NCBI GenBank assembly: GCA_964392925.1 | Contig: CAYMRP010000001.1 | Coordinates: 51,945 to 115,944 of the forward strand | Direction of reading: 5' to 3' | DNA: 64,000 bases | Source of the DNA: an uncultured Gammaproteobacteria bacterium | GTDB lineage: Bacteria > Patescibacteriota > Microgenomatia > Daviesbacterales > UBA10151 | Shown: positions 1 through 64,000 of the stretch, one piece after another | How positions within the stretch are numbered: the stretch's first letter is position 1 | How the letters are laid out: every line of letters starts with the position of its first letter | Made by a program: the position numbers and the translations under genes | Notes under the pieces: model-generated | What the model saw: only the letters and a program-made list of their open reading frames with translations | Database searches by the model: none | What the model was told of the DNA's origin: nothing

Positions 1-1
1 T

Positions 2-496
2 TTGGTTGCCGACAATGCCATAAATTTTTGGGGAATGTACTCTGGTTTTAACCAGCTCGATGCCGGGCAAACAGACTTTCTTCTCAGCTATGAGCATTGG
101 GGTTTCTTAATCTTCGGCCTTATCTTTTTACCCATTCTTATAAAATTCTTAAAGACTAAGTTCTCCTCGGAACTTCTGTTCTATTTCTTATTCCTATCTT
201 CGATAACCTACTTTTTTATCTTTACCCGTATGCATGAAAGATATCTTTTCTTCGGAGTCGTATTTGCTCAAATTCTAATGATGACGAATAAAAAATATTG
301 GTACAATTTATTCTTCTTCTCAGTGCTTTATTTTCTTAACCTATACAGGGGGCTTTATCAACCTGGTCTTCCATACCTTCCGGATCTATTAAAAAACATC
401 ACATTCTTGAACATATTTGTTATTTGTTACTTGTTACTCATTCTTTATAACCTCTATTACTTTATGTTTAAATTAAAAGGCAATGAAAAAAACTAG
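2..496 (+). CDS. C-terminal fragment (5' end lies outside the window) of a polytopic membrane protein, probably GT-C-like and related to the 12303-13457 and 62046-63185 paralogs
   Basis: The reading frame is open from the window edge. The protein is strongly hydrophobic with TM-like segments. Its C-terminal region (TRMHERYLFFGVVFAQ) has the same R-Y-hydrophobic pattern as the C-termini of the 12303 ORF (LPRYVLILFP) and the 62046 ORF (LPRYLIVIFP). The stop overlaps the next start by 14 nt. Confidence 0.45.
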   Translation: MVADNAINFWGMYSGFNQLDAGQTDFLLSYEHWGFLIFGLIFLPILIKFLKTKFSSELLFYFLFLSSITYFFIFTRMHERYLFFGVVFAQILMMTNKKYWYNLFFFSVLYFLNLYRGLYQPGLPYLPDLLKNITFLNIFVICYLLLILYNLYYFMFKLKGNEKN

Positions 497-2177
497 TTTA
501 ATTATCTTTCTTCTCATTCTTGCACTCGCCATATTCCTACGAGTCTATAAATTAGACGCTATTCCTACAGCACTTTTTGGTGATGAGATTGATGTTGGTT
601 ATCAGGCTTATTCTCTTTGGGAAACAGGCCGGGACCTGACTGGAAGGTTCATGCCTTTTTATCTTAGATCACTTTCTGAATTTAGAACTCCGCTTTATAT
701 TTATTCCGCAGTTCCTTTCGTCGGCATCTTTGGCCTGAACGAATGGGGGGTTAGGCTTCCGGCCGCTTTTTGGGGTCTAGTCTCAATAGCTGGAATATTC
801 CTGCTGGCCCGAAAACTCTTCAACACTCAAACAGCCCTTATTGCAATGTTTCTTACCTCAATTTCACCTTGGCATCTTCAATACTCCAGAGCTTCCTTTG
901 AAGTCACAATGCTGTTAAGTTTTATCATTTTTGGCGTATATTTTTTCTTACTTGGCCTGCAAAAAAACCGTTATCTTTTTCTCTCAGCAATCCTCTTAAT
1001 CTCAAGCATTTATATTTACTCCACAGCAGTAGCCTTCATCCCTCTCTTAGGTCTCTTACTTCTGATTATCCATTTTAAAGAAATCATCAAAATTAAAATC
1101 AAAAATATTCTTCTACTTATTCTAACCGTAGTCATAATTCTTATACCGGTTATTATGTCGATGTATACCGGCGAGGCAAAAGAACGATTTAGTTTAATTA
1201 GTATTTTTCAGGATTCAGTTTTAATAGATAAAATAAATCTCTCAAGAAAAGGCCAGGAGTTTTATAGTCCGGAGGGCGATGTCCAAAAAGCAAATCCTGA
1301 ATTTGAGAAAATTTTTTATAATAAACCTTTAATTTTTGCTCAGGTATTTATTACTAATTATTTTAAATCTCTTTCCCCAAGTTTCCTATTCTCAGAAGGT
1401 GATATTAATTTCCGCCACTCTATTCACGAAATGGGGGAGGAGTATTACTTTGAGGCAATCCTCTTTCTACTAGGTTTATTTGCCCTTATAAAACTTGATC
1501 CCAAAAAATCTGCTTTAGTTTTTGGCTGGCTGCTGCTGGCTCCAATTCCATCAAGTCTTACCGATGGGGGAGGATTCCACGCCACTCGGTTATTTATCAT
1601 GCTTCCTCCAATAGTGATGCTTTCAGGAGTCGGCGGCAGCTGGATTATAAATAACTTCAAATCAATTCATGTTAAATTAGTTGCCGCCTTTGTTATCGTT
1701 CTTTTTATCTTCAATTTTACGTTCTACCTTCACCGCTATTATGTTCATTATGGTCCCGAGTCTTGGCGCTGGTGGCACGTCGGCTTTAAAGAAGCCATGC
1801 TCTATATAAAATCAGAAGAAAATAATTATCAACAAGTCGGCTTCAACAATAGCTACGAGCCTTCTTTGATTAGATTCCTATTTTGGAATAAGGTAGACCC
1901 AGCACAATTCCATAAAAACTACCCTCAAACAATGGAAAAGTCAGAAATATTTAATACTTTTGAAGGATTTAAATACACTGATAAATACTTCTTCGGCACA
2001 ACCAACAAACCGATTTTTGAAAATCTGCCTCAGAATACTATTTATATGGTCTCTGCCAGAGATGAAGTTCCAGGTGATTGGGATTGGTCTAAAACTCCTC
2101 CAGCCGGCATAAAAGTTCTAAAAACTGTCTATAATCCTTTAGGCCAGCCCATTTTCTATGTTATTACCAAAGATTAA
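483..2177 (+). CDS. GT-C fold membrane glycosyltransferase, PMT/ArnT-like (GT39-type); paralog 1 of a six-gene tandem array
   Basis: 564 aa. An N-terminal TM helix is followed by a first-loop acidic motif (FGDEIDVGYQAYSLWETGRD) and then a VRLPAAFWG motif. There are at least 10 predicted TM segments and a hydrophilic C-terminal domain of about 150 aa. Confidence 0.75.
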   Translation: MKKTSLIIFLLILALAIFLRVYKLDAIPTALFGDEIDVGYQAYSLWETGRDLTGRFMPFYLRSLSEFRTPLYIYSAVPFVGIFGLNEWGVRLPAAFWGLVSIAGIFLLARKLFNTQTALIAMFLTSISPWHLQYSRASFEVTMLLSFIIFGVYFFLLGLQKNRYLFLSAILLISSIYIYSTAVAFIPLLGLLLLIIHFKEIIKIKIKNILLLILTVVIILIPVIMSMYTGEAKERFSLISIFQDSVLIDKINLSRKGQEFYSPEGDVQKANPEFEKIFYNKPLIFAQVFITNYFKSLSPSFLFSEGDINFRHSIHEMGEEYYFEAILFLLGLFALIKLDPKKSALVFGWLLLAPIPSSLTDGGGFHATRLFIMLPPIVMLSGVGGSWIINNFKSIHVKLVAAFVIVLFIFNFTFYLHRYYVHYGPESWRWWHVGFKEAMLYIKSEENNYQQVGFNNSYEPSLIRFLFWNKVDPAQFHKNYPQTMEKSEIFNTFEGFKYTDKYFFGTTNKPIFENLPQNTIYMVSARDEVPGDWDWSKTPPAGIKVLKTVYNPLGQPIFYVITKD

Positions 2178-3906
2178 ATTCACTCCTCTTCTAAAACCTC
2201 TTTTAGCTATTATTCTGGCATTAAGCCTGTTGGTCAGGGTTTGGCAAATTGATTCAACACCTCCTTCTCTCTATTGGGATGAAATGGATGTCGGTTACCA
2301 AGCTTATTCAATTTTAAAAACTGGCAAGGATTATTATGGTAATTATCCATTCTTAGTCGTTCATTCATTCGCTGATTTTAGAGCCCCTGTCCTAATCTAT
2401 ATAACTGTTCCTTTTGTCGCTATTTTCGGCTTAACGCCTTTGGCTGTCAGACTTCCCGAAGCTGTTCTCGGGACTCTTTCCGTTCTGCTAATTTATATTC
2501 TCACCCGCCAACTTTTTAAAAGCCAAAAAGCAGCACTTTCAGCAGCTCTCCTAACAGCCTTTGCTCCTTGGAGCATTCAGTATAGTCGGATCGCTTATGA
2601 AGCCATGCTTATGCTGGTTGTTTTCTTGGCCGGATTGATCTTTTTCTATAAAGGTCTTTCAAAACCAAAATATTTAATCATTTCAGCGGCACTTTTTTCT
2701 TTAGATCTCTTTGTCTACAACACTATGAAATTGTTCATTCCATTCATAGCAGCTTCTCTAATCGCGATTTATTATAAGCAGCTAACTCTTAACCGGTCAT
2801 CAATAATTGCCTCAATGATCTTAATCATCTCTTTGACTGCTGGCTTATACGGGACAATCTTTATGAACGGAGGTCAGCGTTTTAATGAGATTTCAATTTT
2901 TACTGATCCCCAAAATTCTAAGCAAGTCGATTATCTAAGGCATAATTCTCAACTTTCTTATAATGACAAACCATTAATCGGTGAAACACCTAGGTTTTTT
3001 GATAGGCTTTTTTATAATAAACCTGCACTTTTCATTGATAGGATTACTCAAAATTATCTCACTGCTTTCTCCTCTGAGTTTTTATTCGTTAAAGGCGATG
3101 CTAATCTCCGTCACTCTACGACCATAGTTGGCGAGCTCTATCGCATTGAAGCTTTAGCGATAATATTAGGTCTCGGTTTTCTACTAATTAATCTTAAAAA
3201 AAATCCCCGTGAATCTTTATTAATAATAATTTGGGTAATCATAGCCCCGCTTGCGGCCATCATCACCAGAGAAGGCTCAAACCATGCCACCAGACTCTTC
3301 ATGTTATTCCCTGCACTTACTATTGTGGGGGCATTAGGCGTTGAGTATCTTTCTCAGATACTGCCCCCAAAACTTAGATATTATGTTCTAACGCTACTTT
3401 TCGCTGTCTGGTTATTTTGCGTAGGCTCATTTTTAAATTTCTATTTTGGTGCTTATAACCTTGAAAGTGCAGAATCTTTCCAGTTTGGTTTTGACGAGGC
3501 TGTCCAAAAAGCTACAGAGAACAAAAACAGATACGATTATGTAATAATTGATGATAGGACAGATTCCGCTTTAATGAACTACTTATTCCTTACAAAACAC
3601 GATCCAGCTTTATTTCATACTCAAATCTCAACCCTAAAGTCCGATATTGCCGGATTCCCAGGCGATCAAATTGATAATGTCATTCTTATGAAGCCTTTAA
3701 TGAAGAATTGGGACAATGCTTTTAGTATCAATCAATTTGACCAAAGATACTTACTTATCGTTTCAGCAGAACAAATGAGTGAGCAAACTCCTGAAAAGCT
3801 GTATAAAAAACTCTCTCCAAATCAAACATTAATAGATACTATTTATTATAAATCCGGCCTGCCAGCATTTTATGTTATCTCCAGTCAAAAACCATCTCAA
3901 ATATGA
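2158..3906 (+). CDS. GT-C fold membrane glycosyltransferase, PMT/ArnT-like; paralog 2
   Basis: 582 aa with the same architecture as paralog 1 (YWDEMDVGYQAYSILKTGKD; VRLPEAVLG). It overlaps the upstream gene by 20 nt. The true start may be an internal Met. Confidence 0.75.
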   Translation: MLLPKIKFTPLLKPLLAIILALSLLVRVWQIDSTPPSLYWDEMDVGYQAYSILKTGKDYYGNYPFLVVHSFADFRAPVLIYITVPFVAIFGLTPLAVRLPEAVLGTLSVLLIYILTRQLFKSQKAALSAALLTAFAPWSIQYSRIAYEAMLMLVVFLAGLIFFYKGLSKPKYLIISAALFSLDLFVYNTMKLFIPFIAASLIAIYYKQLTLNRSSIIASMILIISLTAGLYGTIFMNGGQRFNEISIFTDPQNSKQVDYLRHNSQLSYNDKPLIGETPRFFDRLFYNKPALFIDRITQNYLTAFSSEFLFVKGDANLRHSTTIVGELYRIEALAIILGLGFLLINLKKNPRESLLIIIWVIIAPLAAIITREGSNHATRLFMLFPALTIVGALGVEYLSQILPPKLRYYVLTLLFAVWLFCVGSFLNFYFGAYNLESAESFQFGFDEAVQKATENKNRYDYVIIDDRTDSALMNYLFLTKHDPALFHTQISTLKSDIAGFPGDQIDNVILMKPLMKNWDNAFSINQFDQRYLLIVSAEQMSEQTPEKLYKKLSPNQTLIDTIYYKSGLPAFYVISSQKPSQI

Positions 3907-5558
3907 AATTCTTTAAAAACACCAGCCTGGTTCTCATTTTAATTATTGTTCTAGCCTCTTTTCTTAGACTGCCTTTATTAAATCTATATCCTGTGGGCGT
4001 AACCGGCGATGAAGCGGGTCAAGCTTATTCTGCCTATTCTATTTTAAAGACCGGAGCTGATGAATGGGGGGACTTCCTACCTATAAATCCCCGGGGCTTT
4101 GGTGACTATAAACCGCCGCTATTTATGTATCTGCTGGTCCCTTCTATCGCAGTCTTTGGTTTGACTGAATACGCCATCCGCCTTCCTTCCGCAATCGCCG
4201 GAATTCTGACAGTTTTAGTTATGTTTTACTTAGTAAAAAGATTATTTAACAATCGCACTTTGGGTTTGATTGCCAGTTTTCTTTTAGCAATTTCTCCGTG
4301 GCATGTTTATTACTCCAGACTAGGTTGGGAATCAAATATCGGTTTGTTATTTTTTATAATTGGAATTTGGTTATTTATAAAAGGTCTGGAGAAAACGAAA
4401 TTACTAAGTTTAAGTGTTTTAACCTTTGGCCTTGCCGGAATGTCCTATCATTCATTTAAACTCCTAGTTCCTCTAATCTTCATCGCTTTAATTATTATTT
4501 TTTGGAAACAGTTTAAATCCATAAATAAAAAATCTTTAATTGCCCCTCTCGCCGTCACCACAATTTTTGTTTTAGTTCTCGGTTATGGATTGGTATTTGC
4601 CGGAGCCTCAAGAAGAGCCGCAGATCAATCAATTCTAAAAGAAGAAAATCTTAGCGTCCTTCGTCAGAATCAGGTAGAAGACGGCCTCCCTCAACCCTTT
4701 AACAGAGTCGTTTTTAATAAATATCAATTCTTTATTTCTAAAGTCTCAGATAATTATTTGGGATATTATTCTCTCTCATTCCTTTTTGGTCCCCACCGAA
4801 GCGACGGCTCCATTTTAAATTTCCCCTCCATGGGACTTCTGTATATTTGGCAGCTGCCGCTTATTTTACTTGGCTTGTTTTATTTACTCAAAAACAAATC
4901 AAAAGGCAGCGCCGTAGTATTCGCTTGGACTTTACTTGCCCCAATTCCAGCCTCACTAACCCAGGATTACATGCATGCCGGACGGGCTCAAGCATTATTC
5001 CCAGCCCTAACAATAATTTCAGCCATTGGTCTATATTCCATATTCGAATTAATAAAAAATCCAAAATACCAAAACGCTTTCAAAATAATTACTGCCCTGG
5101 TAATAGTCCTCTCAGTTCTTTGGAGAGTAGATAACTACCTCTTTCATACATTTAATAAGAATTTAGGCGGGCTTCAGCCAGGTTATAAAGAAGTGATCAA
5201 TTTTACTGAAAACAACAAAAATTCTTACGATAAAATAATTTTCACCAAACACGGCTCTGAGCCTCATGCTTTTGTCAGTTTTTATGCCTCGACCGATCCA
5301 AAAGAGGTGCAATATGAATCACAAGACTGGAAAAGATTTGAAACTGAAGGTCTAAGATTCCTAGATATGATAGATTATAAATTAGGGAAGTATCACTTCA
5401 AAAATGTTGATTTCAACAGAGATAGAAACGAAATAAATGCTTTACTGGTCGCCCCACCAAAAGATATTCCTTCGGATATAATCCCTAAATTTGAAGCTAA
5501 AGATTCAAATGGAAAAGTTATGTTTGTAGTGATTGATACCAATGAAATTCCTAAGTAA
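3903..5558 (+). CDS. GT-C fold membrane glycosyltransferase, PMT/ArnT-like; paralog 3
   Basis: 551 aa (TGDEAGQAYSAYSILKTGADEWG; IRLPSAIAG). The start overlaps the upstream stop as ATGA. Confidence 0.75.
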   Translation: MKFFKNTSLVLILIIVLASFLRLPLLNLYPVGVTGDEAGQAYSAYSILKTGADEWGDFLPINPRGFGDYKPPLFMYLLVPSIAVFGLTEYAIRLPSAIAGILTVLVMFYLVKRLFNNRTLGLIASFLLAISPWHVYYSRLGWESNIGLLFFIIGIWLFIKGLEKTKLLSLSVLTFGLAGMSYHSFKLLVPLIFIALIIIFWKQFKSINKKSLIAPLAVTTIFVLVLGYGLVFAGASRRAADQSILKEENLSVLRQNQVEDGLPQPFNRVVFNKYQFFISKVSDNYLGYYSLSFLFGPHRSDGSILNFPSMGLLYIWQLPLILLGLFYLLKNKSKGSAVVFAWTLLAPIPASLTQDYMHAGRAQALFPALTIISAIGLYSIFELIKNPKYQNAFKIITALVIVLSVLWRVDNYLFHTFNKNLGGLQPGYKEVINFTENNKNSYDKIIFTKHGSEPHAFVSFYASTDPKEVQYESQDWKRFETEGLRFLDMIDYKLGKYHFKNVDFNRDRNEINALLVAPPKDIPSDIIPKFEAKDSNGKVMFVVIDTNEIPK

Positions 5559-7158
5559 TCATCTAATAATATTCATTTTTGTATTGGCCCTTTTTCTGAG
5601 ATTTGCAAATTTCTTTCAGGACACTCCGCCATCTATAAATTGGGATGAAGCATCCCTCGGCTACAATGCTTTTTCAATATTAGAAACTGGTAAAGATGAA
5701 TGGGGTAGAGTATTACCTTTAACATTTGAAGCTTTTGGTGACTATAAACTGCCAGGATATATTTACACTCTCGTGCCTTTTATTTCAATCTTTGGCCTAA
5801 ATGAAAATTCTGTAAGGTTTCCTTCAATAATTTTTGGATCGTTATCTGTGATATTTTTATATTTAGTAGTTCTGGAACTATCAAAAAAAAGAAACTGGGC
5901 TATTCTCTCCGCCATACTTTTAGCAATTTCTCCCTGGCACTTTTTTCTTTCCCGGATTGCTCTTGAAGCGAACTTAGCCTTAAGTTTTTTCTTGATAGGT
6001 TTATATTTTCTAGTCAAAGGACTTCAGAAAAATCTATATTTAATTCCATCATCACTAATGTTCGGTCTTTCAATTTTTACCTATAATTCCGCTCGAATCT
6101 TTGTCCCACTCTTCCTTTTCGGATTTTTAGTTCTTTATTGGAGGCAAATAAAATTAACAAAAACCTCAATCCTCTCAGCACTTATTCTGACGATATTTTT
6201 GTCAGTCGGTTTTTACCTTGCAGTCTTCCAGGATTCTAGCGCCCGTTATTATTGGGTTAGAATTCTAGATGAAGGTGCGATTAGTTTTCTTGATCAGGCT
6301 CGTAATACCTCGGCGTACCCAGATTTAATAACCAAATTAATTTATAATCGCCCCACCTATTTTGTATACAATTTTGTTTTAAATTATTTTAAACATTTAT
6401 CAGCGCAGTTCTTACTATTCTCGGGCGGCTCAAACTATCAATTCTCATTGCCAAATTGGGGACTTACGTACTTTATAGAAATACCATTCTTAATCTTTGG
6501 ACTCTTTAAACTTGTCAAACAAAAAATTGGTTGGGTTTTCATTCTATGGTTTTTAGCGGCCCCAATCCCTTCAGCTTTAACCAGAGAAGCGCCTCATGCA
6601 TTGCGTTCAATATTTATGCTGGGCAGTCTTCAAATAATAACCGCCTTTGGCATGATTCAGTTCTTCAAACTTCTGGAACATAAAAAATTATTCTCTAAAA
6701 TTTCTTATTCCATTATCGGTTTGTTCATTCTAATTAATGCCGGTCTCTATTTTAATAATTACTTTATGGAATACCCCAAACAATACTCTCAGGCTTGGCA
6801 ATATGGCTATAAACAAGCCATAGATGAAGTTAGGGCAGAATACGATATGTATCCCAAGATCTATTTCACAAAGTATTATGGTGAACCGCACATTTTTTAT
6901 CTTTTTTTCTCCAAGTATGATCCCTCTTTGTATCAAGCGAATGAAACCCTACTAAGAGACAGCCACACTAATTGGCGTTGGGTCGATAGATTAGATAAAA
7001 TATACTTTATAAATGATTGGGAAATGGTTGAGAAAATGAAATCAGAAAGTAATGCTCTGGTTATAGCTTCTCCAGGAAATGTCCCGGAGAACAGTCGGAA
7101 ATTAAAAACCATTTATTTTCTGGATGGGAGTATAGCATTTGAAATCGTCGAAATTTAA
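5533..7158 (+). CDS. GT-C fold membrane glycosyltransferase, PMT/ArnT-like; paralog 4
   Basis: 541 aa (NWDEASLGYNAFSILETGKDEWG; VRFPSIIFG). An alternative start at Met4 (position 5542) is possible. Confidence 0.75.
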   Translation: MIPMKFLSNHLIIFIFVLALFLRFANFFQDTPPSINWDEASLGYNAFSILETGKDEWGRVLPLTFEAFGDYKLPGYIYTLVPFISIFGLNENSVRFPSIIFGSLSVIFLYLVVLELSKKRNWAILSAILLAISPWHFFLSRIALEANLALSFFLIGLYFLVKGLQKNLYLIPSSLMFGLSIFTYNSARIFVPLFLFGFLVLYWRQIKLTKTSILSALILTIFLSVGFYLAVFQDSSARYYWVRILDEGAISFLDQARNTSAYPDLITKLIYNRPTYFVYNFVLNYFKHLSAQFLLFSGGSNYQFSLPNWGLTYFIEIPFLIFGLFKLVKQKIGWVFILWFLAAPIPSALTREAPHALRSIFMLGSLQIITAFGMIQFFKLLEHKKLFSKISYSIIGLFILINAGLYFNNYFMEYPKQYSQAWQYGYKQAIDEVRAEYDMYPKIYFTKYYGEPHIFYLFFSKYDPSLYQANETLLRDSHTNWRWVDRLDKIYFINDWEMVEKMKSESNALVIASPGNVPENSRKLKTIYFLDGSIAFEIVEI

Positions 7159-15253: not shown

Positions 15254-15254
15254 G

Positions 15255-20703: not shown

Positions 20704-20705
20704 TT

Positions 20706-23969: not shown

Positions 23970-24034
23970 TTTAAAAACGAAATCTTTCTATCAAATATAG
24001 AAAAAGTATTTCCTCTTTTTCTTTCAGAAATATA

Positions 24035-26277: not shown

Positions 26278-26281
26278 ATTT

Positions 26282-26911: not shown

Positions 26912-26920
26912 ACGAAGGCC

Positions 26921-36433: not shown

Positions 36434-36439
36434 TAGTAG

Positions 36440-38813: not shown

Positions 38814-38816
38814 AAT

Positions 38817-39968: not shown

Positions 39969-39980
39969 GTTGTGAAAATA

Positions 39981-41878: not shown

Positions 41879-41942
41879 ACAATATTGATAGTTCTAACAT
41901 GTTTAGATTTTCAGTTCAATATGAAAGTGTATAATCTCCCTA

Positions 41943-45386: not shown

Positions 45387-45419
45387 ACAAACAAAAAAAT
45401 CCTGTTAGAATCCCATTTA

Positions 45420-53875: not shown

Positions 53876-53876
53876 A

Positions 53877-54656: not shown

Positions 54657-54733
54657 TAACTATTATTATATTGCATACCTGTCCGTTTCACACTAATTTC
54701 ATTTATCCGCAACTTATGGTACTTTATTCGTGA

Positions 54734-55648
54734 ATGCAAAATACTAAGCCAGAAATTGAATTCACCGGTGAACGCATGGTGCCTGAATTAAATCAGGGAA
54801 TGACGCTCTATTACGAGCACCTGCTTCGCTACATGATGGCTTCCCGCTTTGTTAAGAACAAAAAAGTTCTAGATGTAGGCTGCGGAGTCGGCTATGGATC
54901 ATGGATGCTAAAAAAATCTGGAGCCTCCGAGGTCTATGGAATAGATATTTCAAAAGATGCTGTTAGTTACGCTGATAAAAAATTCGCCGAGTCAAAATTA
55001 CAATTTGAGATTGGTGATGGCGAAAATCTTAAAAACTATCAAAGAAATGTTGATGTCATAACCGCTTTTGAGTTCATCGAACATATCCATAACCAAAACG
55101 CATTTCTCAAAGGCGTAAAAGAAAATCTTAAACAAAATGGTCTATTCTTTGTCTCAAGTCCCAATAAAAATACTTATCAAAACCATAATCATTTCCATGT
55201 CAATGAATTAACCCCTGCAAACTTCGAACAGCTTTTGAAAAAATACTTCAAACACGTGCTTATCTTAGATCAGCGATTTTTGTTCACTAATTATATTATT
55301 CCTACTCATTCAAAAAGTGATATTAATCTGGATAAATTACACGACAATTTTGTTAAAGAAAAAATCGAATCAATATTGCCTTTAAATAAAATAGAAGATT
55401 CGCGTTACATGATCGCTATTTGTTCGGATAAAAAGCTCGACTTAAATCAAGAATATTTTTCAATCTCCTCTTATGATGTAGATAAATTTTCTTTAAAACA
55501 CGGCATTGAAGGGCTCTATGAAGACTGGCATTCCCAGTCCCAAGCCTCAGCAAAAGATAAAGAATTATTAAATCAAATCCGCGATTCCTGGTTTTTTAAA
55601 TTATGGGAGTTTTACTGTCTTATTAAAAAAACCTTAAAAGGAAAATGA
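54734..55648 (+). CDS. Class I SAM-dependent methyltransferase (possible glycan chain-terminating/modifying MTase)
   Basis: 304 aa (VLDVGCGVGYGSWML ... ITAFEFIEHI). Confidence 0.6.
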   Translation: MQNTKPEIEFTGERMVPELNQGMTLYYEHLLRYMMASRFVKNKKVLDVGCGVGYGSWMLKKSGASEVYGIDISKDAVSYADKKFAESKLQFEIGDGENLKNYQRNVDVITAFEFIEHIHNQNAFLKGVKENLKQNGLFFVSSPNKNTYQNHNHFHVNELTPANFEQLLKKYFKHVLILDQRFLFTNYIIPTHSKSDINLDKLHDNFVKEKIESILPLNKIEDSRYMIAICSDKKLDLNQEYFSISSYDVDKFSLKHGIEGLYEDWHSQSQASAKDKELLNQIRDSWFFKLWEFYCLIKKTLKGK

Positions 55649-57045: not shown

Positions 57046-58622
57046 TGAAAAAAGCAGTAGTTTATGATAGGTGGCTTCAAACACTCGGTGGCGGAGAAGT
57101 GGTTGCTTGCAATATAGCCAGAATCCTTAAGCAGTCAGGTTATGATGTGCTGTTAGTTAGTGGTAAAAAAGTCACAAAGGAAACAATCTACGAAAAGCTC
57201 CACATTGATGTATCTGGCATAGAATTTGTTGAAATTTGGAATGATGAATATGCATTAAAAAAACTCACCCAGGGCAAGGATTTGTTTATTAACATTTCTT
57301 TTATGGATTATTCCCGGGGGTTTGCCAAAAAGAATTTATACTATGTAAACTTTCCCACTAAACCCTATGTTACTTTTAAAGGCTTAGTTTTTTCGTTAAC
57401 TGCACCTTTTGTGGCCGGCTTCATTAAGCCAATAGAATCAATGAGTACAACAGATGCTCCTGTAATAATCAGAGGCCGCCCTGCCTATCTACTAGAAAAT
57501 ACTAATAGATATGCGATTTATAATCTTCAGTTAGGTAAAACTCAAACTATCGAATTCAGTCTTCTTATCGAGAATTTTAGTAAAACCCAACTTAAAAATA
57601 TATCACTGACACTCGATAATGCCGAACTCTTAAATACTTGGACAGCAGTTTTCCACGAAAGTAATATTCTCACTTATATACTTAGATTTACTCCAAAATC
57701 CAACACCGTCTACTTAAATATTATGATCGGGGATTTTGGTAAAAAAACTTTTGAATTAGAGCAGGGACGAATCTATTTGCTTTATCCAAAAATTGAATTG
57801 AAAAAAATTTCGACATTCTTATTTAGTGATTTTCTAAATAAATTTCAAATCAGAATGAGAGCTGGAATATTTGTAAATATTCTCGGTCGCCTAAGGAGCT
57901 ATCAATCCATTCTTACCTATTCATCATTCGCTCAAAAGTGGATAAAAAGATATTGGGGTAGAAATTCTGTAATCATCGCCCCTCCGGTCTCGTTTATCTT
58001 CGATGATTACGATCTATCAAAGTATAAAAAGAAAAATTGGATTTGTTCAGTCGGTAGATTCTTCACTTTGGGACATGGGAAAAAACAGGAAATAATGATC
58101 GAGGCTTTTAAGAAAATTTATGATCAGGGTTATAAAGATTGGGAGCTTCATCTTGCAGGAGGCTTAGGTAATGAGCCTTCCAGTATTGAATTTTTCCAAT
58201 ATTTAAAAGATCAATCCGAAGGATATCCAGTTTATTTCCATGTAAATGTCTCCAGAAAAGAAATCGAAGAAATTTACCTGAATTCCAAAATATACTGGCA
58301 CGCTACTGGGTTTGATGAAAATGAAAATTATCAGCCTGTAAGGTTTGAGCATTTTGGAATATCTCCAATAGAAGCCGTTAGTGCCGGTTGTATACCAATC
58401 CTTTATCGCGGCGGCGGCTTACCGGAAATAATTAATCAACTGGAATTAAATCCTGATGATTATTTATTTGGAAATACCAAGTCGCTCATTGCTTTAACAA
58501 TATCTCAAATTGAGAAAAAGACTGAGCCTTTAGACTGGAAAAAAATCTTTAAAATATTAAATAACTCTTACTCGAAAGCCGTCTTTAAGACGAAATTCTT
58601 AAAACTAATTAATTCCCTTTAA
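57045..58622 (+). CDS. Family 4 glycosyltransferase (GT-B; 525 aa)
   Basis: The C-terminal GT4 motif reads EHFGISPIEAVSAGCIPILYRGGGLPEI. The start overlaps the upstream stop as ATGA. Confidence 0.65.
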   Translation: MKKAVVYDRWLQTLGGGEVVACNIARILKQSGYDVLLVSGKKVTKETIYEKLHIDVSGIEFVEIWNDEYALKKLTQGKDLFINISFMDYSRGFAKKNLYYVNFPTKPYVTFKGLVFSLTAPFVAGFIKPIESMSTTDAPVIIRGRPAYLLENTNRYAIYNLQLGKTQTIEFSLLIENFSKTQLKNISLTLDNAELLNTWTAVFHESNILTYILRFTPKSNTVYLNIMIGDFGKKTFELEQGRIYLLYPKIELKKISTFLFSDFLNKFQIRMRAGIFVNILGRLRSYQSILTYSSFAQKWIKRYWGRNSVIIAPPVSFIFDDYDLSKYKKKNWICSVGRFFTLGHGKKQEIMIEAFKKIYDQGYKDWELHLAGGLGNEPSSIEFFQYLKDQSEGYPVYFHVNVSRKEIEEIYLNSKIYWHATGFDENENYQPVRFEHFGISPIEAVSAGCIPILYRGGGLPEIINQLELNPDDYLFGNTKSLIALTISQIEKKTEPLDWKKIFKILNNSYSKAVFKTKFLKLINSL

Positions 58623-60324
58623 TTACAAAAATTGTAGTTTCAATCTGTTCAATACCCGCAGTTTTAGTAAGGGTTGTTAGGAAAGTTTGGAGCGCTGGCT
58701 GCTTTAATGGCGTAAAGCTCTCTGGATTAAATTTAACAATACCAATACCTTTTTCCCTCATAAGCGTAACGAATTGTTCGCTATTATTCTGTTCAATGTT
58801 TAGATTTACCTTTTGAGAAAGTTCGCTTATTGAGGGCAAATCATAACCGCTATATCCGTTAAACATTGGACAGTTATGAACAGTAGATGATAGTTGTGAT
58901 TTAGTAATATAACTTAGCCCTTCAGCGATATTATTTCCCGCCTCCAAATGAGTAACCGGAATTTCCAAGAGCATCTTTTTCTGATTAAGACAAAGATCCT
59001 GGACAGTGAAAGTTCTATCATCATAATAACTTTCCGCAGTCGATTTTAGGTTAAGTGGAATAAATTCTAAAATCAGAAACATAAAAACCAAAACATAAAT
59101 CACATTCGAATTTCTCCCTTTAGCCAATTTTTGCAGTCCAATTAACGAAAAGAATATTAAACCAAAATACAGTAAATAACTCCATCTTGCCGAAACTCTT
59201 ACTGATTCAAAAAGAGGGACAATCTTCATTATAATTGTATATGGCAAAGGAATTTGAGCATAAGTCCCATTAAAATTAAGCCGCGGCCCTAAAGAAAAAA
59301 TAAATCCCGTCAAAGCAGTTGTCAGGAAAAAAGCTTTATTCCAATCAAGCGTCATAAATAATGAGAGTCCTAATTTCTCCCTTTTAATACTAAATAACCC
59401 AATCGTACTTAGTATAATTATCAGAAATCCGGGAAAAGCAGCATGGCCGCCCCAGCCATTCTTATTAAATGAATTCCACTTTTCAAGCGGACTTAAATTA
59501 TATAAAAGAGAATTAACTGAAAAAGAAAACACATAATCACTAAGGCTGGCAGAATAAGTAATATACTCTCCGATATCTCTTTGGACATCATAGTAATTCT
59601 TCATATCAAAGTATCCCTTTATAAAAATTCCGGAAGTTACAATAAATGTCACCAGGATAATCAAAACCCCACTTACTTGAATATTTAAATTCTTACGATT
59701 CAAAAATTTAACAAAGAAATAAATACTTATAGCAGTCAGCAAATATACCGACAAATAAACACTCGAAAGAAATTGAACGGTTACAAATAAACCGCATAGT
59801 GCATATGTTTTTAGAGACCTATTCTCCGCAGTCTTAAATAGAAAATACAAACTAAAGAAAAATGGCCAATAACTCAACATTTGAAAGTGACTGATATTTA
59901 AATGAAAGAATGGCGAGAAAATAAATAACACTGCTCCTAAAAATGCCAGAATATTATTCTTAAATATAATCCTCCAAAATAAAAATAGTGAAAAGTAGTT
60001 CAAAATAAAAGTCAGAATAAAAACTATATTAAAAGTTAAAATTAAATTTTTAGTTATTAAGTAAAAGGGTAAAGCCATAATCGACTGAGGCAATAATAAA
60101 TCTGAAAACAAAAGCGAGTAGGGGTTTGGATAAAAAGCTGTCGTATTAAAAAAATTTGCAAAATCCAAACTAACAATTTTTGAAACATTCTGAAAAATAA
60201 TCCACACCATTAAGGCATAATCCCGCCAATCTATAAGATTAGTATCAAGATTAAATATTAGTGACCTAAAAACAAACAAAAGTAATACTAAAAAAACCAG
60301 AAAATATATGAGAGTGCTTTTCAC
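58609..60324 (-). CDS. Polytopic membrane protein (571 aa), probable GT-C glycosyltransferase
   Basis: At least 13 TM segments. An acidic loop motif (NLIDWRDYALMVW) follows TM1. The 3' end overlaps the convergent GT4 gene by 14 nt. Confidence 0.45.
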   Translation of the reverse strand: MKSTLIYFLVFLVLLLFVFRSLIFNLDTNLIDWRDYALMVWIIFQNVSKIVSLDFANFFNTTAFYPNPYSLLFSDLLLPQSIMALPFYLITKNLILTFNIVFILTFILNYFSLFLFWRIIFKNNILAFLGAVLFIFSPFFHLNISHFQMLSYWPFFFSLYFLFKTAENRSLKTYALCGLFVTVQFLSSVYLSVYLLTAISIYFFVKFLNRKNLNIQVSGVLIILVTFIVTSGIFIKGYFDMKNYYDVQRDIGEYITYSASLSDYVFSFSVNSLLYNLSPLEKWNSFNKNGWGGHAAFPGFLIIILSTIGLFSIKREKLGLSLFMTLDWNKAFFLTTALTGFIFSLGPRLNFNGTYAQIPLPYTIIMKIVPLFESVRVSARWSYLLYFGLIFFSLIGLQKLAKGRNSNVIYVLVFMFLILEFIPLNLKSTAESYYDDRTFTVQDLCLNQKKMLLEIPVTHLEAGNNIAEGLSYITKSQLSSTVHNCPMFNGYSGYDLPSISELSQKVNLNIEQNNSEQFVTLMREKGIGIVKFNPESFTPLKQPALQTFLTTLTKTAGIEQIETTIFVIKGN

Positions 60325-60405: not shown

Positions 60406-62049
60406 GTGAAAATTAAAAATTTCAAACTAAATTATCTGCTTGTTGCAGCCTGCTTTGCTCTATTCATCCTGCTTCTTTTAAAGAATCCTTTTTCAACTCG
60501 TAATCTAATTGGGAATCTTGAGCCTTATCCCGATACCATCCACTACTTATCTCCCGCAATAAATTTTACGAACGGGGAAGGATTTTATATCGAGCGGGGA
60601 GGAAGAATTAAGAATCCAAATGTCCCTTTGCTATATTCTGTTTCTCTTATGCCGGTCTTTCTCTTTACAGACGACCCCAGAGCCTTCTATTTGGTTAATA
60701 TTTTCCTGGCATTACTCAGTCTAGGTTTTCTTTATAAAATTTCATCTAAAATTTTTTCCAATTCCTACATAACTTTCATCGTGATGTTTCTTTATATAAC
60801 TAATTATTTTGTTTATTGGTATCCAAATCTGGCTATGGCGGAGAATTTAATAATACCGATATTTTTGGGATCAGTTTGGCTTTTACTTGAGAAAGTATCA
60901 ATCCGAAATGTTTTAATTGCCGGATTCTTAGTTGTCAGTTTTTATGCCACCAAATATGCAACGATTCCCTTATCATTCTCACTCTTTCTTCTTTATGGCC
61001 TAAAACTTCTGATCGGTGAAAAAAATAACCGGCTAAAATACCTCTCTATATTTTTAATTTGGGTCACCGGACTCTTTTCCGCATTTGCTCTTTTCGAATA
61101 TCTGACAAAAGGCTTCAATATATTGAATTCTTTTGGCTCACTATATTCTCTAATTTTTTCCGGTGTAATTACTGGTGTTAATTCAGGTGAATCAGCTCCT
61201 TCTAATCCTTGGTTTTCGCTCAAATATCTCTCATCAAACTTAAATATTTATCTTGATGCAATTACTGGAAGTCCAATGAGATTTCTGTGGGACAGCACTC
61301 CACTGGTTCCTAAATTTGTAGGCATCTTCGGAATATCAGCACTTATATTTGGTCTATTCACCAAAAAGTTTAGATACCTTTCTTTCTCTCTCTTATTGTT
61401 CCTCTTCAGCCAAATTCTTTTTATGTCGACTTTTTATAGCACTGATGCTAGATATATTTATCACGCAATACCGCTGCTGCTTATTAGTTTTGGCTTATTT
61501 CTCAAGTTTCTCAGCGACTTAATCCGCAGGCTCTCTCCTAATAAAGGTCACCTTATATTTTATTCAATCCTCATCCTTATATTTGCAGGTTATCTTTTAA
61601 CAAGTGCCTATCGAATTAAATATCAAGTAGCCTTAAATCTTAAACACACCGAATCTCCTTGGTACTATATTTCTGTAGATGAAGCAAATAAATATTTTGA
61701 TACTTTGCCAAAAACAGATAAAAAACCTATTTTAATAACCGCTCTGCCTCCTTATTATGTCGATTATTTCTCAAAAGACAGATATACTCTTTTGCCGCTC
61801 TCATTAAGCCAAGAATTCCAAAAAGAAATGCCAGTTACTTGGGGTGATCACAATTTTACCGATCTGTTAGCGCTTTACAGTAGCTATATGAATAATGGTT
61901 ATTCTCTTTATATCTCCAATTACGGGTTAGGCAACGAAGATCATCTTCATAAAGATTTTGATAAAATCAAAGCCGCATTTAATATAGAGAAAGTCCACGA
62001 AGGTTGTTTTAATGCTTGTAACATTTTTAAATTGAATCCACCTCAATGA
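60406..62049 (+). CDS. Polytopic membrane protein (547 aa), probable GT-C glycosyltransferase
   Basis: About 12 TM segments with a C-terminal soluble domain of about 150 aa. Confidence 0.45.
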   Translation: MKIKNFKLNYLLVAACFALFILLLLKNPFSTRNLIGNLEPYPDTIHYLSPAINFTNGEGFYIERGGRIKNPNVPLLYSVSLMPVFLFTDDPRAFYLVNIFLALLSLGFLYKISSKIFSNSYITFIVMFLYITNYFVYWYPNLAMAENLIIPIFLGSVWLLLEKVSIRNVLIAGFLVVSFYATKYATIPLSFSLFLLYGLKLLIGEKNNRLKYLSIFLIWVTGLFSAFALFEYLTKGFNILNSFGSLYSLIFSGVITGVNSGESAPSNPWFSLKYLSSNLNIYLDAITGSPMRFLWDSTPLVPKFVGIFGISALIFGLFTKKFRYLSFSLLLFLFSQILFMSTFYSTDARYIYHAIPLLLISFGLFLKFLSDLIRRLSPNKGHLIFYSILILIFAGYLLTSAYRIKYQVALNLKHTESPWYYISVDEANKYFDTLPKTDKKPILITALPPYYVDYFSKDRYTLLPLSLSQEFQKEMPVTWGDHNFTDLLALYSSYMNNGYSLYISNYGLGNEDHLHKDFDKIKAAFNIEKVHEGCFNACNIFKLNPPQ

Positions 62050-63185
62050 TCAAAGTGCTAAAAATCCTCATCACCTGGAGATTACTGCTTTTTATACCTG
62101 TTATTCTTTCTCAATATCTATTAAATTACGGCACTTCTGTCCCTTTCTTTGAAATAACTTTTTATAAAGATTTACCTAAATATTTAGACTATCCATTCTT
62201 AACCGCTTGGGCAAATTTTGATGGTGTCCACTATTTAAATATCGCTTCTGACGGTTATGAAAGTGCCGGTAGATTCTTCCCCTTTTTTCCGCTGATCCTC
62301 TGGATCTTTAGTATGGGAAATATATATTTCCCTTTAACATTTATTATCTCTTTGATTATTCCTAACATAATTTTTATTCTCGCAGTTTATATATTTCTAA
62401 AACTGCTAAGGTTGGATTATTCAGAAAAAGTCTCTTGGCAGGCATTCTTATATTTAATAATTTTTCCCACCTCATTCTTTTTTATATCCGTCTATAGCGA
62501 AGGAATTTTTCTTCTCCTAACTCTTTTAAGTTTTTATTTGATGAGAAAAAAGCAGTGGTACTTGGCTGCCTTAACTGCCATGCTTTTATCAGGAACTAGA
62601 CTCGTTGGTCTGGTTATAATCCCCGCACTAGTATTTGAATATATTATTATCGTAAAACCCCGCGACTTCAAAGCATTTTTCACACTCGCTCATTTGACTT
62701 TTATATCTTCTCTCGGCCTTGTTGGATACTCTGTCTTTAGTTTTCTTCATTGGGGAGATTTCCTCCATTTTCTTAATGCCCAAGGCGAGCTTAATAATGG
62801 ACGTAGCACCTCTTCCCTTATTTTTCCTCTTCAAACAATTTATCGTTATTTCAAAATACTAACTACTTTACCAATAAGTTTATTTGAGTGGTGGGTAGCA
62901 CTCCTGGAACTCGCCTCATTTATTTATGGAGCCTTCTTCTTACTTCTGGCTTGGAGACGAAAAGCGAGACTCTCTTATTTAATATTTGGTGCACTCGCAT
63001 TTTTAGTGCCTTCTCTTAGTGGAACATTCTCCGGATTGCCCCGCTATCTTATTGTGATTTTCCCTATCTTTATTGCTATGGCCCAAATCAAATCCAATAA
63101 ATTTAAAAACTTATATTATCTGATCTCTGCATCTCTGTTATTCTTGTTAATGATGTATTTCACAATGGCATACTATATCTCATGA
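62046..63185 (+). CDS. Polytopic membrane protein, putative GT-C glycosyltransferase (PIG-V/GT87-like); paralog of 12303-13457
   Basis: 379 aa. It shares WANFDGVHY and FSGLPRYLIVIFP with the 12303 ORF. Confidence 0.55.
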   Translation: MIKVLKILITWRLLLFIPVILSQYLLNYGTSVPFFEITFYKDLPKYLDYPFLTAWANFDGVHYLNIASDGYESAGRFFPFFPLILWIFSMGNIYFPLTFIISLIIPNIIFILAVYIFLKLLRLDYSEKVSWQAFLYLIIFPTSFFFISVYSEGIFLLLTLLSFYLMRKKQWYLAALTAMLLSGTRLVGLVIIPALVFEYIIIVKPRDFKAFFTLAHLTFISSLGLVGYSVFSFLHWGDFLHFLNAQGELNNGRSTSSLIFPLQTIYRYFKILTTLPISLFEWWVALLELASFIYGAFFLLLAWRRKARLSYLIFGALAFLVPSLSGTFSGLPRYLIVIFPIFIAMAQIKSNKFKNLYYLISASLLFLLMMYFTMAYYIS

Positions 63186-64000
63186 TTATTTTAATTATCT
63201 CCATCGGACTAATTCTTAGGTTAATAAATTTAAATCAAAGTTTTTGGCTCGATGAAGCTATCTCTGCGCTCGCCGCCCGTGATTTTTCTTATTATTCTAT
63301 AACTTTTGAATTTCTTAAAATCGATAATCATCCACCTCTTTTCTATTTACTTCTTAAGTTTTGGGGACAACTTTTCGGCTTCACTGATTGGATTCTTAGA
63401 ATATTACCGGTAATTATGGGAACGGTTCTAATCTACGTCATTTATAAAATTTCTTTATTACTTACCACCAATAAAAAAATCGCTTTAACATCCGCACTGC
63501 TGGTTTCTACCTCTCCGCTTCTGGTTTATTACTCGCAAGAAGTTAGAATGTATATTCTAATCTCGCTTCTTTGTGCACTTCAAATTTATTCATTCCTTAA
63601 TTTAGTAAAAAAACAGAAATTTTGGAAATGGTCTCTTTTCTCTTCACTAACCGTACTTATTTTCTTCTCAGATTATATTACTGTTTTCTTCCTACCCATC
63701 TTTTTCTTATATCCTCTTCTAATAAAAGATAAACAATTATTTATTAGAGTATTGTTAGCTTTTATTCCACTCTTAGTGATATTTGGTTCTTGGTCTCCGA
63801 TGTTTAATGAACAACTATTAAAGAATAAGAATATTGTTGATTCTTTCCCCGGTTGGCAATATGTAGTCGGCGGTGCAACATTCAAGAATCTGGCTGTTAT
63901 CTGGATGAAATTTGTTTTCGGCAGAATTTCTTTTGATCCAAAACTTCTCTATTACAGTCTTGTCGCAATTGCTTCAGTCCCAATTTTACTTGGCTTGTTT
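63182..64000 (+). CDS. ArnT/PMT-like GT-C glycosyltransferase; N-terminal 273 codons only, 3' end beyond the window
   Basis: I checked by hand that the frame is open from ATG at 63182 (ATGA overlap with the upstream stop) to the window end. It reads MIILIISIGLILRLINLNQSFWLDEAISALAARDF ... with the first-loop WLDEA acidic motif. Confidence 0.6.
   Translation, partial: MIILIISIGLILRLINLNQSFWLDEAISALAARDFSYYSITFEFLKIDNHPPLFYLLLKFWGQLFGFTDWILRILPVIMGTVLIYVIYKISLLLTTNKKIALTSALLVSTSPLLVYYSQEVRMYILISLLCALQIYSFLNLVKKQKFWKWSLFSSLTVLIFFSDYITVFFLPIFFLYPLLIKDKQLFIRVLLAFIPLLVIFGSWSPMFNEQLLKNKNIVDSFPGWQYVVGGATFKNLAVIWMKFVFGRISFDPKLLYYSLVAIASVPILLGLF

Follow-up and report, generated by a model that had tools for sequence, protein, structure and literature searches.

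Which glycan-building system is encoded by a DNA stretch so rich in membrane glycosyltransferases? The 64-kb window (the whole stretch that we analysed, 64,000 nucleotides) contains 16 genes for glycosyltransferases of the GT-C fold, which belong to at least six sequence families and jointly cover 24,072 bp (37.6% of the window), a density far beyond chance. The initial annotation had counted at least 13 GT-C membrane proteins; an intact ORF is present at each of its coordinates, and each of the membrane proteins is polytopic, with 6 to 10 hydropathy peaks. Pfam PMT_2 matches and profile evidence uphold its view that they are GT-C enzymes rather than transporters, and the acidic residues of loop 1 are kept by all GT-C members. 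The relatives of the window are Daviesbacteria and other Microgenomates, in agreement with the CPR origin suggested earlier. As a CPR bacterium, the organism would have a genome of the ~1-Mb class. We consider it fairly probable that the window forms the central part of a supercluster for cell-envelope glycans, at least 85–90 kb long, from a Daviesbacteria-like Microgenomates (CPR/Patescibacteria) bacterium, operating by the mechanism proposed below.

The first 15 genes form a single overlapping run on the plus strand, dominated by a tandem array of six overlapping PMT_2 genes encoding ArnT/PMT-like GT-C enzymes (483–10415; individual genes at 483–2177, 2158–3906, 3903–5558, 5533–7158, 7139–8797 and 8775–10415). 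Each of the six paralogues matches Pfam PMT_2 above the gathering score (3e-9 to 2e-16), their mutual identity is about 30%, and the pair D34-E35 in loop 1 is invariant in their alignment. Directly 5' of the array, here as in about 30 related loci, lies a gene (2–496) for the C-terminal 164 aa of a PIG-M/ALG6-like GT-C enzyme of 403–425 aa. It was recognized by phmmer against the full-length orthologue in a related locus, L059 (2e-96), and by its family profile, which matches GPI mannosyltransferase 1 (5e-7) and ALG6 (3e-5) and aligns with the PMT-like profile (hhalign 97%). This additional GT-C gene, included in the total of 16, was absent from the initial annotation.

In the comparison across related genomes, which had been proposed as a check, the order of the array and its PIG-M-like leader is kept in 26 of 32 Microgenomates loci, these loci having been retrieved with patterns from the first array gene, so that the count describes them and not the prevalence among all Microgenomates. 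Five of the array genes are position-specific orthogroups conserved across Microgenomates, and their order spans several candidate phyla of this group; the copy at 2158 is confined to close relatives. Orthologues are 45–79% identical, against about 30% for paralogues, with bit-score ratios of best to second paralogue of 1.15–1.6, and every array copy across the loci keeps the loop-1 Asp-Glu. As far as sequences can tell, the conserved order shows retention of each copy and does not imply sequential action on one product. Because the paralogues are old, ordered and all equipped with intact catalytic residues, each most likely performs a distinct step, using a different linkage or acceptor, in the manner of the ALG series of the ER lumen or of the mycobacterial GT-C series for arabinan/mannan.

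The other GT-C enzymes are spread over the window. Two are PIG-V/Gpi18-like, at 12303–13457 (plus strand; 384 aa, the motif NFDGEH in loop 1 being invariant) and at 62046–63185 (plus strand). The run of 15 genes ends with a 609-aa enzyme matching PMT_2 and DUF2142 (16221–18050). The enzyme at 30111–31661 (plus strand) matches PMT_2 weakly (29.6 bits for a cut-off of 26.1); its neighbour at 31654–33201 (minus strand), which has no Pfam match, belongs to the same paralogue family (homology at 5e-10), and its family profile aligns with that of the tandem array over 422 columns (98.4% probability, E 5e-15). The PMT-like enzyme at 50987–53134 (plus strand; 715 aa, invariant D28) has no Pfam match of its own, and PMT_2 is matched by 36 of its 69 homologues. 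The enzyme at 58609–60324 (minus strand), with invariant D32 and D35 and lacking the WWDYG motif, has an AftA/AftD/STT3-like fold, the nearest folds to its structural model being AftA and AftD. The polytopic protein at 60406–62049 (plus strand) is classed as GT-C-like from profile similarity to the 50987 family (hhalign 94.6%, E 7e-8, as compared with at most 6% for control membrane proteins). Finally, the gene at 63182–64000 (plus strand; PMT_2, 5e-15) encodes the N-terminal 272 aa of an enzyme which continues past the window end and whose complete form in locus L054 has 475 aa.

To our knowledge, the donors of every characterised enzyme from the PMT/ArnT, PIG-M, PIG-V, ALG, YfhO and Aft families are polyprenyl-monophosphate sugars, which they use on the non-cytoplasmic side of the membrane. 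Two Dpm1-like synthases of such donors had been proposed in the window, and one of them stands. The short GT2 enzyme at 13445–14128 (plus strand, 227 aa) is a candidate synthase of polyprenyl-phosphate sugars and belongs to the PpgS/GacI/DPMS type: its best PDB matches are DPMS (5mlz, 5e-11), GtrB (7e-9) and ArnC (9e-6), and it matches the NCBIfam models PpgS (1.6e-28) and AglJ (2.5e-28) over their full length, below the equivalog cut-offs. Its gene overlaps by 19 nt that of a small DUF2304 membrane protein of the GacJ/Rv3632 type (14110–14472, plus strand; Pfam 9e-17), and together they are a predicted synthase pair of the PpgS/GacI–GacJ type. In characterised pairs, GacI is stimulated by GacJ and PpgS by Rv3632 (bioRxiv 10.1101/180810). 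The window thus presents one clear polyprenyl-phosphate sugar synthase versus 16 GT-C genes; a second, DPMS/ArnC-like GT2 lies beside two YfhO genes just upstream of the window in relatives and probably also loads sugars on polyprenyl phosphate.

The other proposed synthase (10419–11285, plus strand), conserved directly after the array, is a GT2 enzyme without TM helix from a GmaR/SunS-like subgroup. Its DPMS alignment is confined to the generic N-terminal 100 residues, and the Dpm1-like assignment was rejected; the profile of its family finds GmaR (1e-35 over 190 residues) and SunS (2e-22), both of which glycosylate proteins or peptides. It is followed on the same strand by a cytoplasmic GT4 (GT-B) enzyme (11282–12316; Pfam Glycos_transf_1, 2e-29), and further along by a cytoplasmic TuaG/EpsE-like GT2 with an NAD-dependent sugar epimerase/dehydratase (14453–16205).

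Wzx, Wzm/Wzt and cytoplasmic glycosyltransferases are the customary hardware for glycans initiated on the inner face of the membrane. The window encodes a Wzx-type MOP flippase with 12 TM helices (47109–48593, plus strand; Pfam Polysacc_synt, 2e-21), a candidate for flipping a lipid-linked oligosaccharide or, like GacK, a polyprenyl-phosphate sugar, and an ABC-2 polysaccharide exporter pair made of a Wzt-like ATPase and a Wzm-like permease (53141–54656, minus strand). Seven candidate cytoplasmic glycosyltransferases (four GT2, two GT4, one weak GT11-like) are present, including a large GT2 (466 aa) and a large GT4 (525 aa) next to a SAM methyltransferase (54734–58622, plus strand) and the GT11-like enzyme, a marginal match of 25.6 bits (50028–50927, minus strand). 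The flippase, the exporter, these seven enzymes and a membrane O-acyltransferase (Acyl_transf_3; 29017–30114, plus strand) had all been missed. Judged by its genes, the locus is a hybrid of GT-C enzymes and classical export hardware. The description of the locus as unlike a classical O-antigen or capsule locus was therefore overstated, although the reported lack of phosphoglycosyltransferase, Wzy and Wzz in the window was correct: Bac_transf, Glycos_transf_4, Wzy and Wzz families gave no match with E<=0.01 in any window ORF of at least 100 aa. In relatives 94–99% identical, the cluster continues for at least 20 kb upstream and 4.7 kb downstream and comprises at least 22 GT-C genes in ~89 kb. 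A canonical initiation and polymerization set just outside the window would speak against the system first proposed, and the precomputed Pfam matches of called genes in these flanks include no phosphoglycosyltransferase, Wzy or Wzz. The cytoplasmic arm is without its first enzyme across ~89 kb, and the initiating transferase is possibly encoded elsewhere in the genome.

Between these genes lie the nucleotide-sugar pathways. After a DUF5672 protein (18052–18840, minus strand; Pfam 1e-53), a nine-gene run on the minus strand (19675–28938) encodes a nucleotide-heptose pathway with modifying enzymes: a 342-aa protein without assigned function, a TIGR00180-family GT2, SDR enzymes, a sugar C-methyltransferase, an HddC-like nucleotidyltransferase fused to GmhB, GmhA (SIS) and a GHMP kinase. 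Genes for nonulosonic/acetamidino sugars occupy both strands at 33230–46672 (GFO oxidoreductases, WbuX with HisH- and HisF-like proteins, an SDR, a NeuC-like 2-epimerase, a methyltransferase, NeuB, a cytidylyltransferase-SDR fusion, a PseB-like dehydratase and two unassigned ORFs). The heptose (GDP-heptose) and nonulosonate pathways announced by the initial annotation are thus represented by gene sets, but its fucose pathway comes down to the marginal GT11, generic SDRs and no match at the level of Gmd/Fcl.

Beyond fold and family assignment, we infer the following mechanism from gene content. Nucleotide sugars would be produced in the cytoplasm, and GT2 and GT4 enzymes would start a glycan on a polyprenyl carrier with the help of an initiating transferase encoded elsewhere; the glycan would then be exported via Wzx and/or Wzm-Wzt. 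In parallel, the GacI/PpgS-like synthase, and probably the upstream DPMS-like GT2, would put single sugars on polyprenyl phosphate. After flipping of these lipid-linked sugars to the outer face, the GT-C enzymes would add them one by one to an acceptor, which may be the exported glycan, a wall polymer or surface proteins.

An alternative which we regard as unlikely is protein O-glycosylation: the PMT_2 paralogues would transfer mannose (or another hexose) to secreted, S-layer or pilus proteins, and the remaining GT-C enzymes would extend the O-glycans. Five of the six array members also exceed the cut-off of the Pfam PMT (GT39) model and all carry the PMT-type loop-1 Asp-Glu, the 50987 family profile matches yeast Pmt2 (6p25, 1e-7), and the conserved neighbour at 10419 is nearest to GmaR and SunS. 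In fungi, PMTs work only as dimers or heterodimers according to two articles (PMC12705809, PMC4055783), and the array proteins may likewise form hetero-oligomers with differing substrate ranges, as Pmt1/2/4. However, Pfam revealed neither a MIR domain nor another protein-binding module in the window ORFs, the window encodes no candidate acceptor protein, the array profile has a single PDB sequence match, to the lipid A-modifying enzyme ArnT (5ezm, weak at E 0.004), and Wzx, Wzm/Wzt and the many cytoplasmic glycosyltransferases point to a polymer or oligosaccharide as acceptor.

The same export hardware, with the GT2, GT4, methyltransferase and acyltransferase genes, is what one would expect of an ordinary, very large surface-polysaccharide region holding several Wzx- and ABC-dependent loci with an initiator elsewhere. 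Its GT-C enzymes would only decorate side chains (Gtr, CsbB-YfhO or GacL type), diversifying the polymer against phage or host recognition rather than building the backbone. The YfhO genes with DPMS-like GT2 neighbours just upstream in relatives favour this explanation, and GacI/J-GacL is a decorating system of exactly this kind (bioRxiv 10.1101/180810). We hold it to be slightly less probable than protein O-glycosylation, since the search over ~89 kb yielded no phosphoglycosyltransferase, Wzy or Wzz and several candidate phyla share the order of the five genes. Decorating modules usually vary between strains, and we know of no decoration system with as many as 16–22 GT-C genes. It is very improbable that some of the GT-C-fold proteins are polymerases, ligases or oligosaccharyltransferases moving whole units from polyprenyl diphosphate (Wzy/WaaL/PglB-like) and filling the missing Wzy/ligase roles. 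For the preferred stepwise assembly outside the membrane, the GT-C cluster with its order-conserved array points to an uncharacterised, lineage-wide machine building the cell surface.

Several known systems share parts of this design. ArnC/ArnT, GtrA/GtrB/GtrC and CsbB/YfhO combine, as here, a GT2 polyprenyl-phosphate-sugar synthase with a GT-C transferase; the array shares its PMT_2 family with ArnT, and relatives carry YfhO genes just upstream. Unlike in these systems, no flippase of the GtrA or ArnE/F type was detected here, and they offer no counterpart to the GT-C multiplicity and conserved order of the window. With the Dol-P-sugar pathways of the eukaryotic ER lumen (ALG3/9/12/6/8/10, PIG-M/PIG-V, PMT1-7), kinship exists only at the level of fold or remote profiles, the window genes being bacterial and operon-encoded, with no MIR domains or OST (WWDYG) found. 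Parts are shared, too, with GacI/GacJ/GacK/GacL of Streptococcus pyogenes and PpgS/Rv3632/Rv3779 of M. tuberculosis, which perform side-chain glycosylation via polyprenyl-P-HexNAc and in which a TM-less short GT2 is followed by a DUF2304 membrane partner, like 13445/14110. As in the Gac system, a Wzx-family protein and GT-C transferases share one locus with an ABC exporter whose polymer is assembled inside. Unlike these systems, which have one GT-C enzyme per synthase, the window has 16, a number that rises to at least 22 with its flanks; no GacO/WecA-type initiator was detected nearby, and the similarity of 13445 to PpgS is under the equivalog cut-off. In mycobacteria, GT-C enzymes work one after another on a single wall polymer outside the membrane. 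The window resembles the mycobacterial assembly of arabinogalactan and LAM (AftA-D, EmbA-C, PimE, MptA/B, decaprenyl-P-sugars) in its many GT-C enzymes of different families, known here from their genes, in the model fold of 58609, nearest to AftA and AftD, and in donor synthases of the PpgS/Ppm1 type. Unlike the mycobacterial genes, with which sequence identity is only 8–12% and which are scattered over a 4.4-Mb genome, those of the window include a fixed tandem array.

GT-C-type genes take up 37.6% of the 64-kb window (16 genes, 24,072 bp), in which 58 tightly packed ORFs are separated by intergenic gaps of at most 114 bp, the GC content is ~35% and no tRNA gene is found. The initial annotation, which had described such enzymes as numerous, was right on this point and missed only one of them, the ORF at 2-496. 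In a Pfam scan of every window ORF of at least 100 aa, complemented by an NCBIfam scan of selected ORFs, nine proteins matched PMT_2 (PF13231) above the gathering score: those of the six overlapping tandem genes at 483-10415 (483, 2158, 3903, 5533, 7139 and 8775, each gene being named by its start coordinate), 16221, with an additional DUF2142 match, 30111, and 63182, which is cut by the window end. Six other polytopic proteins (12303, 31654, 50987, 58609, 60406 and 62046) had no Pfam match, PMT_2 included. Comparison within the window revealed that 12303 and 62046 are paralogues (5e-41), as are 30111 and 31654 (5e-10), and that 63182 is related to the family of the tandem array.

Hydropathy profiles showed 6 to 10 peaks in 15/15 listed membrane proteins, all of them polytopic like GT-C enzymes (8-13 TM helices), and structure comparison identified the GT-C fold. 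In structural models, 58609 and 12303 form helical bundles, and these two proteins were classified by fold comparison only, their family profiles having no sequence match in the PDB. The 58609 family is left without the name PF19830, since the precomputed tags carried by its homologues were not reproduced in the Pfam scan. For 50987, an exhaustive HMMER search recovered 1,629 relatives, and among a sample of 69 of them PMT_2 was matched in 36 and PMT in 17; its profile, with an invariant D28, matches yeast Pmt2 (1e-7). Using families built from the fetched loci, the 31654 profile matched that of the tandem family over 422 columns (98.4%, E 5e-15), and the profile of the family to which 2-496 belongs matched GPI mannosyltransferase 1 (5e-7), ALG6 (3e-5) and a PMT-like profile (97%); this ORF is the end of a protein of 403-425 aa, and a homologue search with the 164-aa fragment 2-493 had given two weak matches only. 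The 60406 profile matched the 50987 family at 94.6% (E 7e-8) and the 31654 family at 87.5%, while control membrane proteins (Wzx, acyltransferase, ABC-2 permease) stayed at or below 6%; on this profile evidence 60406 is probably of the GT-C type. Fold and profile comparisons with these controls thus rule out that the membrane proteins are transporters, in agreement with what had been proposed at first sight. An oligosaccharyltransferase identity is ruled out on motif grounds, the WWDYG motif of STT3, PglB and AglB being in none of the proteins. Comparing N-termini, we found that the first extracytoplasmic loop of every GT-C member carries one or more acidic residues a short distance past TM1: D34-E35 are invariant in the array, as are D28, D32 with D35, D33 and D66 in the families of 50987, 58609, 2-496 and 12303, respectively. 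By analogy with characterised members of these families, the GT-C proteins are predicted to use polyprenyl-phosphate-sugar donors on the non-cytoplasmic face of the membrane.

The array was then compared across 49 related loci, recovered by patterns from its first gene, a sample which is biased toward the array and does not give its prevalence across all Microgenomates; the order of the downstream genes is independent of this mode of recovery. Named by best match, five genes occur in the order 483, 3903, 5533, 7139, 8775 in 26 of the 32 loci with at least three confidently assigned array members, and in the remaining six the core order is unchanged and additional copies are present. The 2158 copy is confined to close relatives. 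A PIG-M-like gene lies directly upstream of the array in ~30 loci and a GT2 gene of the 10419 type follows it in ~20. Orthologues share 45-79% identity, whereas the window paralogues are only ~30% identical to one another, and 48 positions, D34-E35 included, are invariant in 6/6 window copies. Because the paralogues are old, ordered and catalytically intact, these observations argue for a distinct step for each of them.

Two small GT2 enzymes had initially been taken for Dpm1-like donor synthases, and this probably holds for one of them. The 13445 protein has 227 aa, within the range of about 225-230 aa of short PpgS/GacI-type GT2 enzymes, and its closest solved structures are Pyrococcus DPMS (5e-11), GtrB and ArnC. 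It matches positions 4-220 of 226 of the NCBIfam PpgS model (1.6e-28), where it scores 99.7 bits (equivalog cut-off, 370); the AglJ match is just as good and likewise below its cut-off. Its gene overlaps by 19 nt the adjacent ORF 14110-14472, a DUF2304 protein (9e-17), and a pair of this type is also present in three of the fetched loci (L007, L052 and L053). Judged from sequence, this is the arrangement of GacI/GacJ and PpgS/Rv3632, in which the small membrane protein, bound to the synthase, makes it more active, the GT-C enzyme GacL then using polyprenyl-P-HexNAc outside the membrane (bioRxiv 10.1101/180810). The other enzyme, 10419, is closer to GmaR (1e-35 over 190 residues) and SunS (2e-22) when a profile of its 37-member family is used, and the single-sequence comparison agrees. 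Its similarity to DPMS (1.6e-10) is confined to the generic N-terminal 100 residues and does not extend over the whole catalytic domain, so that the Dpm1-like assignment was rejected.

The window also contains functions which the initial annotation had overlooked: a Wzx-type MOP flippase with 12 TM helices (47109-48593), a Wzm/Wzt pair typical of the ABC-dependent pathway (53141-54656; ABC2_membrane 4.5e-20, ABC_tran 2.3e-22) and an Acyl_transf_3 protein. As the two exporter ORFs share 143 nt, the true start of Wzt probably lies further downstream. Candidate cytoplasmic glycosyltransferases comprise four GT2, two GT4 and one marginal GT11-like protein; together with the exporters, they provide the locus with the standard hardware for exporting glycans assembled on the inner face. 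Wzm/Wzt adjoins a SAM methyltransferase, a GT2 (466 aa) and a GT4 (525 aa), both unusually large, and this stretch (53141-58622) looks like a self-contained polysaccharide module of the ABC-transporter type, in which the methyltransferase may cap the chain. As had been noticed from the start, initiating phosphoglycosyltransferases (PGT), Wzy and Wzz gave no match: no window ORF of at least 100 aa matched the PGT families Bac_transf and Glycos_transf_4, and no PGT, Wzy or Wzz family was matched within the ~89 kb formed by the window and the flanks of near-identical relatives, which were covered through precomputed Pfam matches of called genes, 20 kb upstream and 4.7 kb downstream. The canonical PGT/Wzy/Wzz set that would have spoken against the initial reading thus did not turn up in these flanks. 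Of Wzx, Wzy and Wzz only the first was matched, but Wzy proteins are poorly captured by profiles and may have escaped the scan.

Among the nucleotide-sugar pathways originally proposed, those for heptose and nonulosonate are represented by sets of genes, whereas a fucose pathway is not supported. The heptose genes encode GmhA, a GHMP kinase and, in one fused gene (24035-25252, minus strand), an HddC-like sugar-1-phosphate nucleotidyltransferase and a GmhB heptose-bisphosphate phosphatase; this fusion adjoins GmhA, the kinase and a sugar C-methyltransferase (22752-23969). The nonulosonate/acetamidino set comprises PseB-like, NeuC-like and NeuB proteins, a CMP-sugar cytidylyltransferase domain fused to a full short-chain dehydrogenase domain (42868-44391, plus strand) and, embedded among these genes, an acetamidino-sugar trio (35144-37968, minus strand) of the WbuX amidotransferase (TIGR03573, 8.7e-105) with HisH-like and HisF-like proteins. 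Acetamidino-sugar pathways normally require a DegT-type aminotransferase, for which no match was obtained anywhere in the window. Between the GT-C and heptose operons lie, on the minus strand, a DUF5672 protein (18052-18840, 1e-53) and a 342-aa soluble protein of no matched family (19675-20703). Two plus-strand ORFs of 110 and 293 aa (45420-46672), with no Pfam or NCBIfam match, lie in the sole stretch with raised GC (0.388 versus ~0.35). All 4-kb bins show a negative GC skew whatever the gene strand, and the window is thus probably inside one replichore.

The relatives of the window are Microgenomates (Daviesbacteria, Shapiro-, Ames-, Collier- and Woesebacteria), which bears out the CPR origin suspected from the sequence style. 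Among the closest MAGs, many bear the title 'uncultured Gammaproteobacteria', 'Spirochaetia' or 'Mariniplasma' yet share the Microgenomates-type array of the named Daviesbacteria and Shapirobacteria MAGs; such titles are apparently placeholders or taxonomically wrong. The flanks of the window could be read from contigs of 94-99% identity to it, which raised the count to at least 22 GT-C-type genes in ~89 kb. Downstream, in a contig of 99% nucleotide identity (L054), the full-length 63182 protein has 475 aa, and beyond it come a GT-C-like protein of 422 aa (4e-7 to 30111), a GT4 and a polytopic protein of 514 aa (L054:315-1859, minus strand, ~2.9-4.4 kb past the window end). The latter shows 'HFVDEED' near its N-terminus; it reached 5% by hhalign against the PMT-like profile and was left out of the count. 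Upstream (contigs L056, L057 and L059), the order is GT2, a PTPS_related protein, a second Wzx, a 1113-aa protein, a 524-aa relative of 30111, a 513-aa PMT_2 protein, GT2, two YfhO proteins (~800 aa), a DPMS/ArnC/GtrB-like GT2, GT2, GT4 and the PIG-M-like gene, then the array; copies of the upstream GT2 and YfhO genes at least 90% identical are recorded on the window's own contig. The PTPS_related protein, which we take to be a member of the GT-C clan in Pfam, reached 87% by hhalign against the PMT-like profile. The 1113-aa protein (L059:3424-6765, plus strand, ~13-16 kb upstream of the window start in a relative of 94-97% identity) consists of an outside domain of ~480 aa and, after it, 12 TM helices, and bears a weak DUF3863 tag only; with at most 27% by hhalign it was not counted either, and its role may be that of a polymerase or of an enzyme that processes glycans. 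The DPMS/ArnC/GtrB-like GT2 (254 aa, L056:6002-6766, minus strand, ~3.7-4.5 kb upstream; 5mlz, 1e-16) stands beside the two YfhO genes and is a candidate for a second polyprenyl-phosphate sugar synthase.

Fold and family identities, gene order and conservation make it, on balance, probable that the GT-C enzymes add sugars from polyprenyl-phosphate carriers, outside the membrane, to an exported glycan or to surface proteins. The steps of this scheme are inferred from characterised members of the PMT/ArnT, PIG-M, PIG-V, ALG, YfhO and Aft families. The carriers would receive their sugars from 13445/14110 and from the DPMS-like GT2 upstream, then be flipped, perhaps through a Wzx-type protein, the role proposed for GacK, and the GT-C enzymes would take single sugars from them on the outer face; the acceptor would be either surface proteins or a glycan that GT2 and GT4 enzymes begin inside and that Wzx or Wzm/Wzt then exports. 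That protein O-glycosylation is the main role appears unlikely. No window protein has a Pfam match to the luminal MIR domain of eukaryote-type GT39 PMT enzymes, but bacterial Pmt is likewise devoid of it, so that protein O-mannosylation may occur in its absence. It is rather improbable that the GT-C enzymes merely decorate classically made polymers, a reading for which the locus offers two exporters and no matched PGT. That some members act as polymerase, ligase or oligosaccharyltransferase is most improbable; no protein carries WWDYG.

CPR bacteria (Patescibacteria) account for much of bacterial diversity; their genomes are minimal, and for the most part they live attached to other cells. To our knowledge, essentially nothing is known of the chemistry of their envelope. 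Devoting ~38% of 64 kb, and at least 22 genes in ~89 kb, to GT-C enzymes suggests that something important is made at the surface, and the order of the five genes is maintained in several candidate phyla. Tentatively, one can go further and imagine that Microgenomates, and perhaps other CPR, share a lineage-defining surface glycan or glycoprotein coat built almost wholly outside the membrane by a fixed-order line of at least six GT-C enzymes (PIG-M-like, five PMT_2 orthogroups, PIG-V-like) fed by polyprenyl-phosphate sugars. If true, this would be a bacterial counterpart of the ALG/GPI pathways of the ER lumen, would take up several percent of a genome of roughly 1 Mb and would plausibly serve to attach the cells to hosts. 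The GacI/J-like donor synthase, the ordered GT-C array and the two exporters are concrete, testable parts, which lend themselves to heterologous reconstruction, to the design of glycan or lectin probes for uncultured cells and to studies of host recognition by episymbionts, and in the ordered array nature provides a series of divergent PMT_2 enzymes with which to follow the evolution of GT-C specificity.

In the literature, CPR genomes have received passing remarks on copies of 'dolichol-phosphate mannosyltransferase' (PMC4736985, PMC6031116), and we found no description of this array in CPR, an absence which is no proof that none exists. The GacI/J/L, PpgS/Rv3779, ArnC/T, Gtr and CsbB/YfhO systems are of the same kind, each combining a polyprenyl-phosphate-sugar synthase with GT-C transferases. 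The three-component Gtr and CsbB-YfhO systems differ by their small GtrA-family flippase, which had no match in the window, where no small multi-TM ORF is unassigned and the largest gap is 114 bp. Assembly by multiple GT-C enzymes is already known from mycobacterial walls and the ER lumen; what is new here is the density of 16 GT-C genes in 64 kb, the combination, within a single cluster, of at least six GT-C families and the tandem PMT_2 array, whose order is conserved across Microgenomates.
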